This document shows, piece after piece, positions 19,396 to 30,977 of a stretch of 32,000 bases of DNA (positions are counted from its first letter, which is position 1; every line of letters begins with the position of its first letter). Location: NCBI RefSeq assembly GCF_000145295.1, contig NC_014408.1:750001-782000 (forward strand), in the 5' to 3' direction. The notes below the pieces were generated by a model that made no database searches, was not told the DNA's origin, and worked only from the letters and a program-made list of their open reading frames with translations. Both the position numbers and the translations under genes were made by a program. The DNA is from Methanothermobacter marburgensis str. Marburg (GTDB taxonomy: Archaea; Methanobacteriota; Methanobacteria; Methanobacteriales; Methanothermobacteraceae).

Positions 19396-20075
19396 TTGGA
19401 TACAGCATACTTTCCGTTTACAGCAATCACAGGCCAGGAGATGCTGAAGGAGGCCCTCGTCCTCAACGCAGTAAACCCTGCAATAGGAGGCGTCCTGATA
19501 CGGGGGATAAGGGTACAGGAAAGTCAACTGCAGTAAGGGCCCTGAGTGACATTCTTCCTGAAGAAACATCGTGGATGGCTGCAGGTTCGGATGTGACCCT
19601 GATGGATCTGAACTATGATGGAGTGCCAGAAAAAACAAGATGCATGGGAAGCTTCAGGTGAGGTCCGCGAAAATGGAGGTTGTCGACCTTCCTGTTTCGG
19701 CAACAGAGGACATGGTGGTGGGAACCCTTGATATAAGGAGGGCGCTCCATGAGGGAATAAAGGCCCTTGAGCCAGGATTACTTGCAAGGGCCAATGGAAA
19801 CATCCTCTACATCGACGAGGTCAACCTCCTCGATGACCATGTGGTCAACGTTTTACTTGACGCAGCAGCCATGGGTGTGAACATAGTTGAACGTGAGGGC
19901 ATATCTGTGAGACACCCCTCAAGGTTCATACTTGCAGGTACCATGAACCTCGAGGACCTCAGGCCCCAGATAATTGACAGGTTCGGTTTAAGTGTGGATG
20001 TGGAGGCCCTCACTGACCCAATGAGAGGATAAATGTCATAAAGCAGGCACTTGATTTCCAGAGGACCCTGAGGAC
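19396..20075 (+). pseudogene. chlI/bchI-like AAA+ chelatase subunit, disrupted (4 frameshifts + 1 in-frame stop, C-terminus missing)
   Basis: Stitched across frames it reads '[33 protein letters not shown] | [19 protein letters not shown] | VDGCRFGCDPDGSEL* ... [19 protein letters not shown]...[57 protein letters not shown]...DRFGLSVDV | [14 protein letters not shown] | DPED'. Frame changes lie near 19503, 19565, 20022 and 20060, and a TGA lies at 19616-19618. The right boundary is approximate. Confidence 0.8.
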
Positions 20076-20822
20076 AACCACATCCTGAAGCACAACCTTG
20101 AGGACGGAACTGTGAAGGTTCCCGCAAGGATATTTGGACCGGTGCCATTGGAGTATGCAAGCACACTAACCCGAAATCATCGATGACGGAAGCTGGAACT
20201 CTGAGGATGAACTTGCATCCACCTACATGGAGGAGATGTGTTACGCCCACCTTCCTGGCGGTGTCAGGAAGGCCGGGATGAGTTCAGGAGGAACCTCCAG
20301 AGGTGGAGGTGGTGGCCCAGGAGAGGGACAACGTGGAGTACGAGGTGACCGACCTCGACCACTACTATGAATTCATGGGTGGCCTCACATCATCCATAAG
20401 GAGCCTTGGGGGTTCATGCAGCGTGAGGGTTGTGGACTCAACTGAGGACGAGCTCTACGTTGAGGGCCTTGAGGACGTCATAGGGAGGGCCGTAAGGTGC
20501 AGGATCCTCAACCCCCGCTGGCTTTACGGATGCTGGCCCATGATTATCACGGGGCAAAGAACATCAAGAACCGTGTGGAGCACCTCCTGGGCTTCTCAGC
20601 CACAACAGGGGCCGTGGAGAACGGGTATATGATGATGTTGCAGAGACACTGATACTTGACGATGAAATGAGGAGAAGGATCACAGAGAACAACCCCTTTG
20701 CAGCGGTTCGGATGGGTGAGACACTCCTTGAAACGGCTGAGAGGGGCTACTGGGACGCACCGGATGAGGTGATTGAGAGGATAGGGGAGATGGTTCTCAA
20801 CATTGAATATGAACTTGAGTAA
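20076..20822 (+). pseudogene. C-terminal ~245 codons of a cobN/chlH-like chelatase large subunit, disrupted and fused to the chlI-like remnant
   Basis: Stitched reading: 'VPARIFGPVPLEY... | EIIDDGSWNSEDELASTYMEEMCYAHLPGG | GRDEFRRNLQR | VEVVAQERDNVEYEVTDLDHYYEFMGGL...RILNPRWL | GMLAHDYHGAKNIKNRVEHLLGFSATTGAVEN | YDDVAETLILDDEMRRRITENNPFAAVRMGETLLETAERGYWDAPDE...YELE*'. This matches my memory of the CobN C-terminus ('RVFG..PG.YG', 'QNQDN.E.D.LD.DDYY.F.GG', 'NPKWI.GM..HGYKGA', 'ATTG'). The stop is TAA at 20820-20822. Confidence 0.75.
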
Positions 20823-26941: not shown

Positions 26942-27811
26942 CTACCAGACCTCTGAGGCATGTTTTCTCAGGGCATCCACTATCCTTTTCACCTTGCTCT
27001 CACCCAGCATGAGGCGGCTCTCCATTATATGCTCCGGGACATGGCAGGGCTTCAGGATCCTGCAGTGCTCATCCTCCTCCATGATGGTGCAGGAGGCGCT
27101 GAGGAATGCAACCACAGCATTAACCCATGAGACATAGATATCCCTGGTTTCAAGGAATTCCTTGAGGGCTGCGGCATTTCTCTTGGCCTGGATGGACGGT
27201 GACCTGACCTCCTCCTTTCTGAGTTCATCGTTAAGGAACCAGCGGTCACCCTTCACGATGTAGTTCCCTGAATAGGACTTTGTCTCTATCACGTAGACCC
27301 CGGTTGGCCCCACAACCACGTGGTCCATGTTCCCGTATGCCCCCGGGAGCTTGATGTCGTTCAGGATATGATACCCTTCAGGCAGGCGTCTGAGGCAGTT
27401 TGTCACTATGAGTTCACCCTCATGTCCCTTTCTCCAGCCCATACCTCTTCTTTCACTGGCCCTTATCAGTGGCACCGAGAGGGCCATGAGAATGATTCCC
27501 AGAAGCACGGGTGTGATGCCCCATGTCGTGCCTGTGACTGTAAGTAATATTCCGGCAGGTGTCATCAATGCCCCTGCAATGAGGATGAGGTTCCCGCCCC
27601 TCCAGAGCCTCCAGTAGTTATCGGCCTTCCTGTGGGTGTGGGTTTTTCTGCTGGATTCAGGGACATGTTTGGTGATTTTACGGTATTCGTTGAGGTTTTT
27701 AACGTAGAGGAGTGGTGAGCCGCATTCATCACACATGTGGAATGCCCAGAATTCTTCCTCACTGTTGATCTGCCAGTAGTGGTTACAGTTCTCGCATATG
27801 AGGTAGGCCAT
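26942..27811 (-). CDS. Zn-ribbon / two-TM / NERD (nuclease-related) domain protein
   Basis: I prefer ATG 27809-27811 ('MAYLICENCNHYW...CDECGSP', a CxxC...CxxC ribbon). Two TM helices follow ('LILIAGALMTPAGILLTV', 'ITPVLLGIILMALSVPLI'). The NERD core is 'GHEGELIVTNCLRRLPEGYHILNDIKLPGAYGNMDHVVVGPTGVYVIETKSYSG'. The track start at 27976 adds 55 unconvincing residues. Confidence 0.8.
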   Translation of the reverse strand: MAYLICENCNHYWQINSEEEFWAFHMCDECGSPLLYVKNLNEYRKITKHVPESSRKTHTHRKADNYWRLWRGGNLILIAGALMTPAGILLTVTGTTWGITPVLLGIILMALSVPLIRASERRGMGWRKGHEGELIVTNCLRRLPEGYHILNDIKLPGAYGNMDHVVVGPTGVYVIETKSYSGNYIVKGDRWFLNDELRKEEVRSPSIQAKRNAAALKEFLETRDIYVSWVNAVVAFLSASCTIMEEDEHCRILKPCHVPEHIMESRLMLGESKVKRIVDALRKHASEVW

Positions 27812-27982
27812 GATATCACTTGAAAGAGATTTCCCTTTCCTACTTATAGGGGGGAGGTGATTATATTCTTTTCCATGTGTGCTGTTTTGTGTGCTTATGA
27901 CAATACTGTCGCCGCATAAAACACTTCTTGTCAATGTAGCAGCCAAGACCTCTATCATTAATGTGGAGAATAACAAGCCAAT

Positions 27983-28262
27983 GATATACAGGATGTGTAT
28001 ATCATGATATACATGAGGTGTATATAACTCTCCGAGGGTACCCCCCGGTTGGGGCTGATATCGATATACATATATCGTAATACATCAGCTGATATACGTG
28101 GTGTGTATATCGGGGGGTGTGGGGGTGATATACACTGAGGGTATGCCTGTAGGGCCGCCCTGATATACATATACACGATATATATATCAGGGTTTTCTCC
28201 AGGAGACCTTCGCTGGGTTATATACAGGGTGTGTATATCATGATATACAGCATGTGTATACA
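27983..28262. repeat. array of six 21-bp palindromes GATATACA-N5-TGTATATC plus two related palindromes, arranged symmetrically around a G-rich core
   Basis: U1 27983-28003; U2 28006-28026; U3 28091-28111; U4 28127-28147 (right arm degenerate); U5 28219-28239; U6 28242-28262. Related elements are 'GATATACATATATC' at 28063-28076 and 'GATATACA...GATATATATATC' at 28162-28188. The G-rich core 'GGGGGGTGTGGGGG' spans 28112-28125. Confidence 0.85.
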
Positions 28263-28426
28263 GTATGAAAAAATCAAAAACAGAGTTATCATGTCTTTTT
28301 TGATCATCCAAGTAATTTCCAACTTTTTCCAGAGGTTCTCCTATGAGGGTTCATATGATAATGCCTCAGATAGGTACAGATTCGGTGCAAAATACAGGTA
28401 TCTGTATCATATGATGTATATGTGGC

Positions 28427-28526
28427 GATGAATCTGGAGGTTTTTCGGGGCATTTTATTTTTATCAAATAACACATTAAGATGAATCTGGAGTTTTCAGG
28501 CGGATTTCATTTCCATCTTATAACAC
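28427..28526. repeat. 53-bp-period tandem repeat (2 copies) just downstream of the kinase gene stop
   Basis: Both copies (28427-28474 and 28480-28526) start 'GATGAATCTGGAG', continue with T-rich tracts and end 'ATAACAC'. By-eye identity is about 70%. Confidence 0.75.
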
Positions 28527-28582
28527 CTTGATTTATCTTCGTTAAACGTCACTATTACGAAGGTATTGTTAATGGCTGCAAC

Positions 28583-30265
28583 CTATTCATCCCTCTCCCT
28601 GAAAACAATAGTGAATTTCGTACCATTATCTACCTCCAGTGTCATCTCACCGTTCAGCTGTTTGGTGAGGAGGCTCACAAGTTTAAGTCCAAGGGTATCG
28701 GTACTCGAGGGGTCGATATCCTCTGGAAGACCCACACCATCATCTGCCACCACCAGTTCTACTGAACCGTCGGCCCTTCTCATACCTATGGTTATGGTGC
28801 CTCTTCCATCGGGAAATGCATATTTGATGCTGTTGGTTACAAGTTCGTTGATGAGCAGCCCGAGGGGAATGGCAGTGTCCAGGTCAAGTTCCATGTCCTC
28901 AATCTCAAGATCTTTCCTGACACTTACCCCATGGGATATTATTATGTCCCCAACCAGTTTCTCCACGTATTCCCTGAAATTGACCCTCTCCAGTGACTCT
29001 GACTGGTAAAGGTGTTCATGTATCATTGCCATGGCCTTTATCCTTCCCTGACTCTCCCTGACTATTTTACGGAGTTCTTCATCCCCTATCCTTGAAAGCT
29101 GAAGGTTCAGGAGGCTTGAGATTATCTGGAGGTTGTTCTTGACCCGATGGTGTATCTCCCGGAGAAGCACCTCCTTCTCCCGGAGGGACCTGCGGATCTC
29201 CTCCTCAGCCTCCCTGATATCTGTGACATCGACAAGGGAAGCCACGGTCATTGTGGTTCCAGGGATGCGATCCGCATTCATCCTTATGTACTTTATGTTC
29301 CCATGACGGTCACGGAACCTGAAGTTATAGATTCTTGGAACGGCATCAGGGTCCTTCAACCAGAGATGGTAATATTCTTCCATTCTCTTGAGATCCTCAT
29401 CTGCTAAGAATTCCCTCCAGCTCTTCTTACCCTCTATCTCCTCCCTGGAGTAGCCGCTGAGCCTCTCAAATTCCCTGTTAGCCATCAGTATGGTGGTGTC
29501 CTCATCAACTATGGTTGTCGCAGAACCGGTATTCTCGAATATGCTCCTGTATAATCGCTCCTTCTCCTTAAGCTCATCCTCAAGCTGTTTACGTTCTGTT
29601 AGATCCCTGTAGACAGCGACCACCTCTCCTGAAGGCAGGCGGTAGACGAAGTTTTCCTTCCAGCCACTTATCCTGTCATCACTGTAAAAGGCGATGGGGA
29701 AGTGTTCTGCCCTTCCAGTCCTGTATACTCTCCTTAGAACATCAAGAAGCCCGAAATCATCCACACCTGGAAAGACCTCAGTCACCCTCCTCCCGATTAT
29801 CTCCTCCTTATTCACCCTCTCAATACGTTCAGCTGCACGGTTGAAATCCCTGATTACGAAGTCCTCACCATCATCAACCGCCTCATAGACAGCCACGCAG
29901 CTATCGATGTACTCAAAGAGCTTTTTGTAGCGCTCCTCCCCAAGGATGATCCTGCTCATGAGAAAATCAATGCAACTTTTAAGGTCGTCATCATCCACGG
30001 GCTTCTCAATGCAGCCATATGGACAGGTCAATACAAGATTCCCTTCATCCTCAAAGTCTATGAGGTACATGAGGGGGATCCCCGTGTCTCCAGGACCCCA
30101 AGCCCCCACCCTCTGGGGGGTTGTGTATATGAGGATCAGGTCATGTTCAGTTTTCCTGGCATCTTTAAGATCTGTGGCCACATCCACACTGAAACCATGG
30201 CGCCTCAGTTTTTCCTCTAAGTCAGGAGCACTATCAATATCCTTAACGAGAAGAATCCTGAACAT
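28583..30265 (-). CDS. sensor kinase: degenerate (pseudo-)receiver - PAS - PAS - HisKA_2-type kinase core
   Basis: ATG at 30263-30265 with 'GAGGTGA' upstream. PAS openings are 'RYKKLFEYIDSCVAVYE' and 'LYRSIFENTGSATTIVD'. H-box 'EIHHRVKNNLQIISSLL', then 'ELVTNSIKYAFP' and 'VADDGVGLP'. The N-terminal REC-like fold lacks the phospho-acceptor Asp ('DLILIYT' versus 'DIILMDI'). Confidence 0.88.
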   Translation of the reverse strand: MFRILLVKDIDSAPDLEEKLRRHGFSVDVATDLKDARKTEHDLILIYTTPQRVGAWGPGDTGIPLMYLIDFEDEGNLVLTCPYGCIEKPVDDDDLKSCIDFLMSRIILGEERYKKLFEYIDSCVAVYEAVDDGEDFVIRDFNRAAERIERVNKEEIIGRRVTEVFPGVDDFGLLDVLRRVYRTGRAEHFPIAFYSDDRISGWKENFVYRLPSGEVVAVYRDLTERKQLEDELKEKERLYRSIFENTGSATTIVDEDTTILMANREFERLSGYSREEIEGKKSWREFLADEDLKRMEEYYHLWLKDPDAVPRIYNFRFRDRHGNIKYIRMNADRIPGTTMTVASLVDVTDIREAEEEIRRSLREKEVLLREIHHRVKNNLQIISSLLNLQLSRIGDEELRKIVRESQGRIKAMAMIHEHLYQSESLERVNFREYVEKLVGDIIISHGVSVRKDLEIEDMELDLDTAIPLGLLINELVTNSIKYAFPDGRGTITIGMRRADGSVELVVADDGVGLPEDIDPSSTDTLGLKLVSLLTKQLNGEMTLEVDNGTKFTIVFRERDE

Positions 30266-30300: not shown

Positions 30301-30977
30301 TCACCCTCTGAATAGCTTTTTGGTCCCCATCTCAGGGTTTGAGGCGATACGCTGCAGGTCGCCTCCGGGGATGTTCACCATGACATCCCCCTAACCACAT
30401 GCACCTCCTTGAGCCCACATCCCCGAATCCATAGGTCACCTTACCTGTGAGGTAGGGGGAGTGATGCCATTGAGCTGCATATGGGTCCTGAGTCGGCCCC
30501 GAGGCCATGTGAACCTGAGTCATAGGCGTTGGCATGGAGGACCTCCATTGCCTGCCTGGCATTGCAGAGGATGAATATAACGTCTGGCTCATATTCAGCA
30601 AGTTGAAGGGGGGCAAATATAAGGGCACTGAAGACCCCCGGTTCAATGTTCAGGTTATCCCCTCCATGAGCGCTGCACCGCCGGTATGTTCCTGTAGACC
30701 TCCATGGGCACAGGGAAAGCGCCGCTTCGCATGTTAGCTGGGAATTCGGATGGATCCCTCAGGCCAGTGTACCTCGCACCCCCCATGCACTCCTCCTCAT
30801 CCCTGGTCGCATAGAAGACCTCCCCATTCATTGCCTTCACGAGTTTTTCACAGAACCTTGATTTACCATTCTCCCTTTCAATGTTTGCTGGCTCCCTGAC
30901 GGACCATTTTATGGCCACAGGTTCATTTTCAAGTTTTAAGACTTCCTTAAGTTTTTCCCCAGTTCCTTAGTATCCAA
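30301..30977 (-). pseudogene. DUF169-like gene disrupted by at least four frameshifts
   Basis: Stitched minus-strand reading: '(L)DTKELG | EKLKEVLKLENEPVAIKWSVREPANIERENGKSRFCEKLVKAMNGEVFYATRDEEECMGGARYTGL... | DNLNIEPGVFSALIFAPLQLAEYEPDVIFILCNARQAMEVLHANAYDSGSHGLGADSGPICSSMASLP | YLTGKVTYGFGDVGSRR... | DDVMVNIPGGDLQRIASNPEM...*'. Frame changes lie near 30955, 30655, 30440 and 30385. The family call (DUF169, 'PVA.KF ... FC ... C.GG ... EPDV') is from memory. Confidence 0.65.

Follow-up and report, generated by a model that had tools for sequence, protein, structure and literature searches.

A recurrent 282-bp palindrome module of Methanothermobacter genomic islands and its orphan copy in Methanothermobacter marburgensis

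Introduction

Arrays of short DNA sites are bound by ribbon-helix-helix (RHH) proteins in several systems, for example the parC site of R1, which is bound by ParR, the heptad arrays of pSM19035, which are bound by the omega protein, and the Arc and Mnt operators of P22. The Arc operator is 21 bp, and an inverted site of 21-23 bp suits an RHH dimer of dimers. In archaeal ORBs, a G-rich element lies beside dyad elements. Little is known of the mobile elements of methanogens, and it is only recently that Methanothermobacter became genetically tractable.

Here, we describe an array of palindromes in a stretch of 32,000 nucleotides from the chromosome of M. marburgensis str. Marburg (NC_014408.1, positions 750,001 to 782,000; hereafter, the window). 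The array is a copy of a 282-bp module that is linked to Methanothermobacter genomic islands. In these islands the module, like the parC, omega and Arc/Mnt arrays, is a cluster of short sites beside a small gene for an RHH-like protein, and like parC it has two clusters that flank a central region. However, it differs from the RHH-bound arrays in several respects: there is no recognised ParM or ParA, the spacing is irregular and not in a 7-11-bp register, the array lies downstream of the RHH-like gene (RHH-53, see below), the whole element is a 282-bp imperfect palindrome, and binding is here only predicted. Iteron origins and archaeal ORBs share with the module many same-sense copies of one word, an AT-rich neighbour and a G-rich element, but the module has neither a linked initiator gene nor regular spacing. 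Lambda-type attP and Tn3/Tn4430-type resolution sites are also similar, in that they are 240-280 bp long, have several protein-binding repeats to either side of a centre and are linked to a tyrosine recombinase gene. In contrast to these sites, the module is intact in integrated islands, and the att core is a different sequence at the island ends.

Results

Palindromes between the NERD and kinase genes

The array is situated between two genes on the same strand. The features of this region are as follows (coordinates are those of the window).

26942-27811, minus strand: NERD-domain gene, 171 bp from the module
27911-28349, unstranded: strain-specific segment of 439 bp, consisting of 71 bp, the module and 86 bp; takes the place of the MNT/HepT cassette found in K4 and JASFYE010000008
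27982-28263, unstranded: recurring 282-bp module, bounded by the outer palindromes
27982-28027, unstranded: left terminal pair (U1 and U2), two abutting 23-bp palindromes TGATATACA-N5-TGTATATCA; inverted repeat of the right pair
28057-28083, unstranded: most conserved interior block, TGATATCGATATACATATATCGTAATAC; near-invariant in types 1-3, diverged in M. wolfeii type 4
28090-28112, unstranded: internal palindrome U3, left arm GATATACG
28112-28125, plus strand: G-rich core GGGGGGTGTGGGGG, central, at the dyad centre
28126-28148, unstranded: internal unit U4, left word good, right arm poor
28158-28192, unstranded: 35-bp palindrome CCCTGATATACATAT-N5-ATATATATATCAGGG, 15-nt arms, 93% complementary
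28218-28263, unstranded: right terminal pair (U5 and U6); the outer arm of U6 is degenerate in the window copy (TGTATACAG)
28583-30265, minus strand: PAS/HisKA_2 sensor histidine kinase gene, identified by domain search

The interval from the NERD start (27811) to the kinase stop (28583) is non-coding, as a first-pass annotation of the window had stated; Pfam gave no match for ORFs that cross the gap. A tRNA scan found no tRNA, the ORFs and Pfam matches contain no integrase or RHH gene near the gap, and no initiator gene (Rep or Orc1/Cdc6) was recognised in the window.

We scanned the 32-kb window with GATATACANNNNNTGTATATC (GATATACA-N5-TGTATATC), allowing up to three mismatches. There were seven matches, all within 27983-28262, while dinucleotide-preserving shuffles gave an expectation of 0.07 and none of them reached seven. 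Six such units had been described in the first-pass annotation, and all six are present between 27983 and 28262, at the positions given there. Their palindromic nature stands, but the proposed length of 21 bp was too short: there is a T before almost all left arms and an A after the right arms, and the true unit is the 23-bp TGATATACA-N5-TGTATATCA. Therefore, U1/U2 and U5/U6 abut exactly. U4 is located where it had been placed, but it is a weak unit with three mismatches and the right arm GGTATGCC. A palindrome described earlier as loose (28162-28188) contains the seventh match (28168-28188) and belongs to the 35-bp palindrome at 28158-28192. The G-rich core GGGGGGTGTGGGGG at 28112-28125 was confirmed by reading the sequence. 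The mirror-like layout that had been noticed is real, because the end pairs together with about 12 further bases form 55-nt inverted arms that are 75% complementary. Folded as a single strand, the module gives one extended foldback (z = -7.2 for DNA and -8.1 for RNA), which makes the foldback structure suggested earlier physically plausible. The words of the array are spaced by 23, 59, 26, 36, 35, 57 and 23 bp, without phasing on a single face of the helix, and all spacers are G/T-rich on one strand.

The array is a discrete module that recurs in genomic islands

Strain KEPCO-1 (CP042937.1) encodes a NERD protein identical to that of the window and carries the same array beside it. This genome has two more copies, one with 94.6% identity that is inverted and 5.4 kb distant, and another inside a tandem island. 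Copies with 93-95% identity are present in tyrosine-integrase islands of several Methanothermobacter strains and metagenomes (L001:3826-4107; L071:44-323; L220; L227-230; L233; L253). L071 is a Methanothermobacter MAG, L220 is a JGI metagenome contig, and L227-230 and L233 are ENA/Logan contigs. The alignments with island copies begin and end exactly at 27982 and 28263; the array is a discrete module with its own identity and sharp borders. Diverged homologous modules were also found, with 80% identity in L234 and 74% in L236 and its relatives. The form in M. wolfeii islands, among them that of strain SIV6 (L250, LT608329.1), is homologous as read by eye. The module has the same orientation in all island copies. 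An invertible promoter switch was rejected because there is no inverted allele among them. Only one solo locus was found across the collections searched, and the remaining copies occupy a fixed island position.

By blastn, the module has no match among PLSDB plasmids and INPHARED phages. In viral contigs, searches with the 16-nt and 14-nt palindrome, module-interior and island-end patterns gave chance singletons or nothing. An 18-nt unit junction found nine bacterial singletons and no Methanothermobacter in 185,579 species-representative genomes; with the same junction, a metagenome scan gave a single true module (L220) amid chance singletons. Literature searches on the motif and on pFV1/pFZ1 found nothing relevant. 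It should be mentioned that metagenome contigs that end inside the module do so at points spread over about 25 nt, which fits repeat-induced breaks and strain variation alike.

Gene order of the islands

The gene order is constant across the islands compared, and is as follows.

Positions 1-3: 396-aa tyrosine recombinase; 32-35-aa ORF; 144-146-aa coiled-coil protein
Positions 4-5: optional AAA_15/AAA_21 OLD/PtuA-like ATPase cargo; 53-70-aa RHH-like protein
Positions 6-8: opposite-strand 44-aa RHH-like protein (types 1-2); module; G/C-rich tract and AT-rich DNA
Positions 9-12: 135-aa protein; 81-89-aa protein; optional SIR2_2 cargo; DUF6788
Positions 13-14: NikR-like protein (some islands); MTF_ORF3, YdjM, 87-aa protein and CLIPPER/DUF11 protein

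The defence cargo is variable. The last four genes are the backbone of the plasmids pFZ1, pFV1 and pRMAS01. Thus, the islands and pFV1/pFZ1 have this backbone in common, whereas the module is found in the islands and not in the free plasmids: it is absent from pFZ1, pFV1 and pRMAS01, and there is no analogous array in pFZ1. The integrase family is large, with 188 proteins found, and is restricted to Methanobacteriaceae; a search of viral contigs gave no relative. The AAA_15/AAA_21 (OLD/PtuA-like) protein is the only ATPase and occurs in some islands only. Neither a partition NTPase (ParA/ParM) nor a gene for Rep, Orc1/Cdc6, a primase or a helicase could be recognised in the Methanothermobacter islands.

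The module is internal to the islands, with 1.1-5 kb between it and the end that carries the integrase; the opposite end, which is seen in L253, is free of the motif. An AT-rich stretch of 45 bp adjoins the module on one side, and the G/C-rich tract with AT-rich DNA on the other. The genes to either side of the module in type-3 islands converge on it. Therefore, promoter control cannot be the sole role for which it is conserved. The island of M. wolfeii SIV6 encodes an integrase of the same family as the Methanothermobacter islands described here, and contains a homologous module. From gene description and content only, we take this island to be GI 2 of the SIV6 paper, which gives GI 2 no function and in which "palindrom" matches only text about CRISPR (PMC7022856).

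The integrase attachment site is distinct from the module

We deduced the core site of the integrase by aligning the 170 nt upstream of the integrase start from 12 independent contexts (junctions). The island end is constant (CTATTACGAAC-ATATGGTCCGAATAAACAC). Before it are a 4-nt spacer and a variable chromosomal arm, which resembles TTCG[TC][TA]A[TA]A[GC]. Therefore, the core is TTCGTAATAG-N4-CTATTACGAA. KEPCO-1 has islands in tandem, where the integrase end of one directly adjoins the far end of its neighbour, and the joined ends form a palindrome of about 64 bp. The window contains an empty site of this kind, 275 bp from the module.

28538-28561, unstranded: empty attB, TTCGTTAAAC-GTCA-CTATTACGAA; situated 22 nt past the stop of the kinase gene, with an arm matched exactly by 28552-28561

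In L001 and L071, the equivalent of 28538-28561 is the exact point of island insertion. In M. thermautotrophicus loci, where the intergenic DNA is otherwise diverged, a 28-nt stretch that includes the core is 100% kept.

The integrase core is unrelated to the module word TGATATACA. The module does not resemble the junction core, and the one stretch of 8-10 nt that is similar to a core arm (28074-28083) is at chance level. Moreover, the module is found inside the integrated elements and not at their ends. Because the core sequence is unrelated and the module is internal, the module is not the att site.

The window copy is an orphan in strain-variable DNA

The content of the gap between the kinase and NERD genes varies from genome to genome.

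Strain K4: MNT/HepT toxin-antitoxin pair
L071: island plus MNT/HepT pair
M. thermautotrophicus: 57-aa ORF
M. wolfeii: PepSY-like gene

Other strains with these flanking genes lack the module. At kinase-NERD loci without an island (K4, JASFYE01, M. thermautotrophicus and M. wolfeii), the motif is absent, and L071 carries it only inside its island. About 97 bp directly upstream of NERD are kept in genomes without the module. The locus is not conserved in close relatives, which the first-pass annotation had named as a finding that would speak against its proposals; this undermines a host regulatory role in particular.

The module borders differ between the two contexts, with GCCAA before and GTATG after the module in the window, and ATGTC and AATAC, respectively, in the islands. 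There is no target-site duplication in either context, and no island-end sequence lies beside the orphan copy. Comparison of the flanks of the window copy with those of island copies gave one borderline 24-nt match, which lost its significance when larger targets were used. The island copies differ from the orphan copy by 5-7%, whereas identity between the two strains is 99.96% in the chromosomal flanks. Therefore, the orphan copy predates the KEPCO-1 island insertions. Thus, the window copy is an orphan of a mobile-element module that lies in strain-variable DNA beside an empty attB. As no cognate gene is close to it, this copy is most likely a relic.

Conservation of the TGATATAC word

We compared the variable columns of five distinct type-1 copies. 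The spacers were variable at 47% of columns, the arms at 6% and the non-motif interior at 11.5% (Fisher tests: spacer versus arm, p = 2e-6; spacer versus interior, p = 3e-5). Kept arms with free spacers are probably the signature of half-sites that are read by a protein, with a spacer that it does not contact. Conservation of the non-motif interior is close to that of the arms and implies constraint beyond simple half-site binding.

With at most one mismatch allowed, modules of all four types contain 8-14 copies of the word TGATATAC each, where about 0.3 are expected; type-1 modules have 13-14 such words against 0.35 expected, and are thus arrays of a repeated short site. In types 2-4, most words have the same sense (7:2, 8:2 and 6:2). 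Therefore, the conserved feature is the same-sense words at homologous positions. In other words, the palindromic unit is not what is conserved, and the 23-bp palindromes are an elaboration of type 1. In the diverged modules, partner arms decay without compensatory change while the word is retained, and in types 3-4 they are mostly missing. This uncompensated decay argues against selection for hairpins or RNA.

Candidate proteins encoded beside the module

In every island, the module starts 79-261 bp after the stop codon of an orthologous 53-aa protein (RHH-53). This is the only small protein of DNA-binding type that is adjacent to the module in every type. RHH-53 is orthologous in the four aligned island types, with an invariant PVVVRLY strand, and matches PDB 2KKE (E = 4e-19). 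From its sequence pattern and weak Pfam hits (NikA-like/DUF6290), we read it as a predicted RHH protein. A second RHH-like protein of 44 aa (RHH-44) is encoded about 97 bp from the module in types 1-2. Thus, an RHH-like gene stands beside the array in every island, in contrast to the window, where none is near the gap.

The 135-aa protein is a diverged Hjc. It matches the NCBIfam Hjc family (E = 5.7e-5) and shares 41% identity with a Pfam-Hjc protein encoded in an island of Methanobacterium, and the 27 best PDB matches of its AlphaFold model (pLDDT 69) are all Hjc structures. However, the catalytic D and E-x-K residues are replaced. The gene lies about 330 bp from the module in most islands and is absent from type-3 islands. 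A predicted non-cutting protein of junction fold, encoded beside cruciform-prone DNA, is a lead rather than a result.

Discussion

The array is best read as a cis-acting repeat array of a mobile element, namely a protein-binding cis-element, of which the window holds a relic. On balance, we consider it probable that the array is a multi-site protein-binding platform for maintenance or control of the island, with RHH-53 as the best candidate binder. In this model, the TGATATAC words would be binding sites for a dimeric island protein, and RHH-53 is put forward because it is invariably adjacent. Two inverted words in type 1 would make a 23-bp site for a dimer of dimers, and the abutting pairs at both ends of the module might support cooperative, possibly looped, assembly. 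The resulting nucleoprotein complex may act in partition, in the start of replication, or in repression of the flanking genes. The proposal in the first-pass annotation of a centromere- or iteron-like site of a former mobile element came close to this; to it are now added the integrase island, of which the site is a module, and the orphan status of the window copy. Several observations speak against the model: the words are not phased on one face of the helix, most words of types 2-4 have the same sense, the interior is constrained as well as the arms, the free plasmids have no module, and neither a partition NTPase nor a replication gene was recognised in the Methanothermobacter islands. The bias of the spacers to G/T on one strand is not accounted for by a symmetric duplex-binding model, and it is left unexplained by the protein-binding platform, as are the sharply defined borders of the orphan and the strongly constrained interior.

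Several other explanations were considered. First, the module may be an accessory, resolution or cassette-exchange site for the tyrosine recombinase of the island, in which case the palindromes would be recombinase arms around a crossover spacer. Inverted arms of 8-9 bp around a short spacer do resemble recombinase core sites, the spacers are hypervariable and seem to be shuffled among units and copies, and the borders at the outer palindromes are sharp in two unrelated contexts, with the orphan copy only 275 bp from attB. Furthermore, in L235/L239 an MwoI-type R-M insertion breaks the module at the equivalent of the central core and about 150 bp, a half-module, is duplicated. However, the L235 junction also holds a duplicated 3' end of the RHH gene, which suggests unequal or homologous rather than site-specific exchange. 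The core TTCGTAATAG-N4-CTATTACGAA, seen at 12 junctions, is not related to TGATATACA, and the one 10-mer of the module that is similar to it is at chance level; the module is 1.1-5 kb inside the islands, away from their ends, and its single orientation in all island copies gives no sign of inversion. We therefore regard a recombination site as unlikely.

Rather less is to be said for the module as the replication origin, or a cis-site, of an integrative plasmid, with same-sense TGATATAC iterons, a core prone to foldback or cruciform formation and adjacent AT-rich DNA. Six to eight same-sense words are at homologous positions in all four types, island modules are flanked by AT-rich DNA, the foldback potential is strong, genes are common to the islands and pFZ1/pFV1, and a protein of Hjc fold is encoded about 330 bp away in most islands. 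However, Rep, Orc1/Cdc6, primase and helicase are all unrecognised in the Methanothermobacter islands, and the free plasmids are without the module. The repeat spacing of 23-59 bp is irregular, and regular direct repeats are not seen. The Hjc-like protein, for its part, lacks the catalytic D/E-x-K and is missing in type-3 islands. Thus, an origin seems distinctly improbable.

A selfish foldback or MITE-like element, which moves by itself and has no function for host or island, is very unlikely. Its size of 282 bp, the terminal inverted repeats of 46-55 nt (the 55-nt arms being 75% complementary), the long foldback and the identical borders in island and solo copies would suit such an element. 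In contrast, target-site duplication is lacking in both contexts, all collections searched yielded one solo locus only, position and orientation are fixed in every island, and the interior is strongly conserved.

The leading idea of the first-pass annotation was a resident operator array, or divergent promoters, for the NERD and/or kinase genes. The array is indeed 171 bp upstream of the NERD start codon, and U2 and U5 each have a conserved TATA-like word (TTATATA) as their inner half-site. As described above, however, strains and species that have both genes (K4, JASFYE01, M. thermautotrophicus and M. wolfeii) are without the motif and have different DNA in the gap, the conserved 97 bp or so upstream of NERD do not depend on the presence of the module, and the usual home of the module is inside islands. 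The idea is abandoned for NERD and kinase, and we give very little credence to host regulation. A structured non-coding RNA made of hairpins is the least credible explanation, to be all but dismissed: the strong fold (z = -8.1) and the G/T bias of the loops on one strand point to it, but Rfam gave nothing at gathering thresholds for the whole window and one chance-level hit (E = 0.77) for 27800-28600 in E-value mode, the arms of diverged modules decay independently and uncompensated with the word kept, and types 3-4 mostly miss the partner arms.

A bolder version of the protein-binding platform, which we think improbable, is that the 282-bp foldback is a self-contained maintenance element of a type new for archaeal integrative plasmids. 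Its cruciform-prone TGATATAC array would be recognised by the RHH protein together with the inactive Hjc-like protein, it would serve as a centromere or as a structure-dependent start of replication, and it could be copied as a unit to new sites, as the orphan would suggest.

In this study, a recurrent and strongly conserved non-coding element has been defined, together with the attachment site of a widespread integrase family of Methanobacteriaceae, and an integration hot spot has been identified beside a sensor kinase gene. For annotation, the array in the window is to be regarded as a mobile-element relic and not as a regulatory region of the NERD and kinase genes. Should the module prove to serve partition or replication, it could provide vectors for thermophilic methanogens with a cassette for stability or origin function, and the persistence of pFV1/pFZ1-related islands with R-M and other defence genes would be explained.

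Attachment site and islands

The window carries an empty attachment site between the palindrome module and the kinase gene:

Window 28538-28561, TTCGTTAAAC-GTCA-CTATTACGAA, unoccupied attachment site of the 396-aa integrase family of Methanobacteriaceae.

In two other genomes, this site is the exact point at which islands have been inserted. Furthermore, a 28-nt stretch spanning the site is 100% conserved in the M. thermautotrophicus loci, while the intergenic DNA around it has diverged. Between the module and the site, a sequence of about 52-53 bp (GATGAATCTGGAG...ATAACAC.TT) is present in two tandem copies (window 28427-28529); counterparts of these copies, approximately 80% identical, also occur in module-free strains.

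Strain KEPCO-1 (CP042937.1; L252/L253, record positions 1-42194) possesses two near-identical islands in tandem, and their integrase genes (QEF93682.1 and QEF93701.1) are identical. At the island junction, where the far end of one island meets the integrase end of its neighbour, the two ends make up a palindrome of about 64 bp (GTGTTTATTCTGACCATGTGGATTCGTAAC-GTCA-CTATTACGAACATATGGTCCGAATAAACAC). Three copies of the module are present in the KEPCO-1 genome.

An island with a related integrase (63% identical) was found in another genus:

L246, Methanobacterium alkalithermotolerans CP058560.1, 2111292-2128470, island.

This island also encodes a DnaG-zinc-ribbon protein, a 718-aa protein, an intact-looking Hjc and MTF_ORF3, and it is possibly a replication-competent relative of the Methanothermobacter islands. 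In its AT-rich non-coding regions, there was no clear equivalent of the module.

Probable gene remnants were observed elsewhere in the window. The DUF169 gene (window 30332-30918), which is intact in relatives (228-231 aa), looks split into ORFs of 104 aa and 87 aa and is probably a pseudogene. Window 19640-20822 contains short CobN/Mg-chelatase gene fragments (51 and 106-109 aa) and AAA_5/Mg-chelatase ATPase fragments (124-130 aa), which are likely gene remnants; at the counterpart position in M. wolfeii, the CobN-like gene is intact and 1120 aa long.

Interrupted modules, spacers and the adjoining protein

A type-3 module, a diverged version of the module from related islands, is interrupted by a MwoI-type restriction-modification cassette:

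L235, 12285-12443 and 15935-16240, interrupted module (also in L239).

The cassette splits the module at the central core, and at its flanks one module half is present as a direct duplication of about 150 bp and the 3' end of the RHH gene is duplicated. In record L236, the type-3 module is uninterrupted. Five kinase-bearing metagenome contigs (L004, L005, L006, L008 and L012) terminate 43-68 nt into the module. In a sixth (L007, 4534-4702), another sequence takes over at the border of the module. It looks coding and, read by eye, bacterial and ClpB-like; this switch is probably an assembly chimera.

The palindrome spacers (window 27983-28262) are all G/T-rich on the plus strand, and at 47% of columns their variability greatly exceeds that of the rest of the module. 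Moreover, certain spacer sequences, for example gcatg and tgagg, recur in different units of different copies. Simple duplex binding leaves this pattern unexplained.

In two records with an island-borne module, a 135-aa protein is encoded next to it:

L228, 14923-15330, 135-aa protein adjoining the module.
L001, 3087-3494, 135-aa protein adjoining the module.

This protein is a diverged homologue of the Holliday-junction resolvase Hjc, and its 27 best PDB fold matches are Hjc structures. The catalytic Asp and Glu-x-Lys residues are substituted, and the protein is probably an inactive, structure-binding one.
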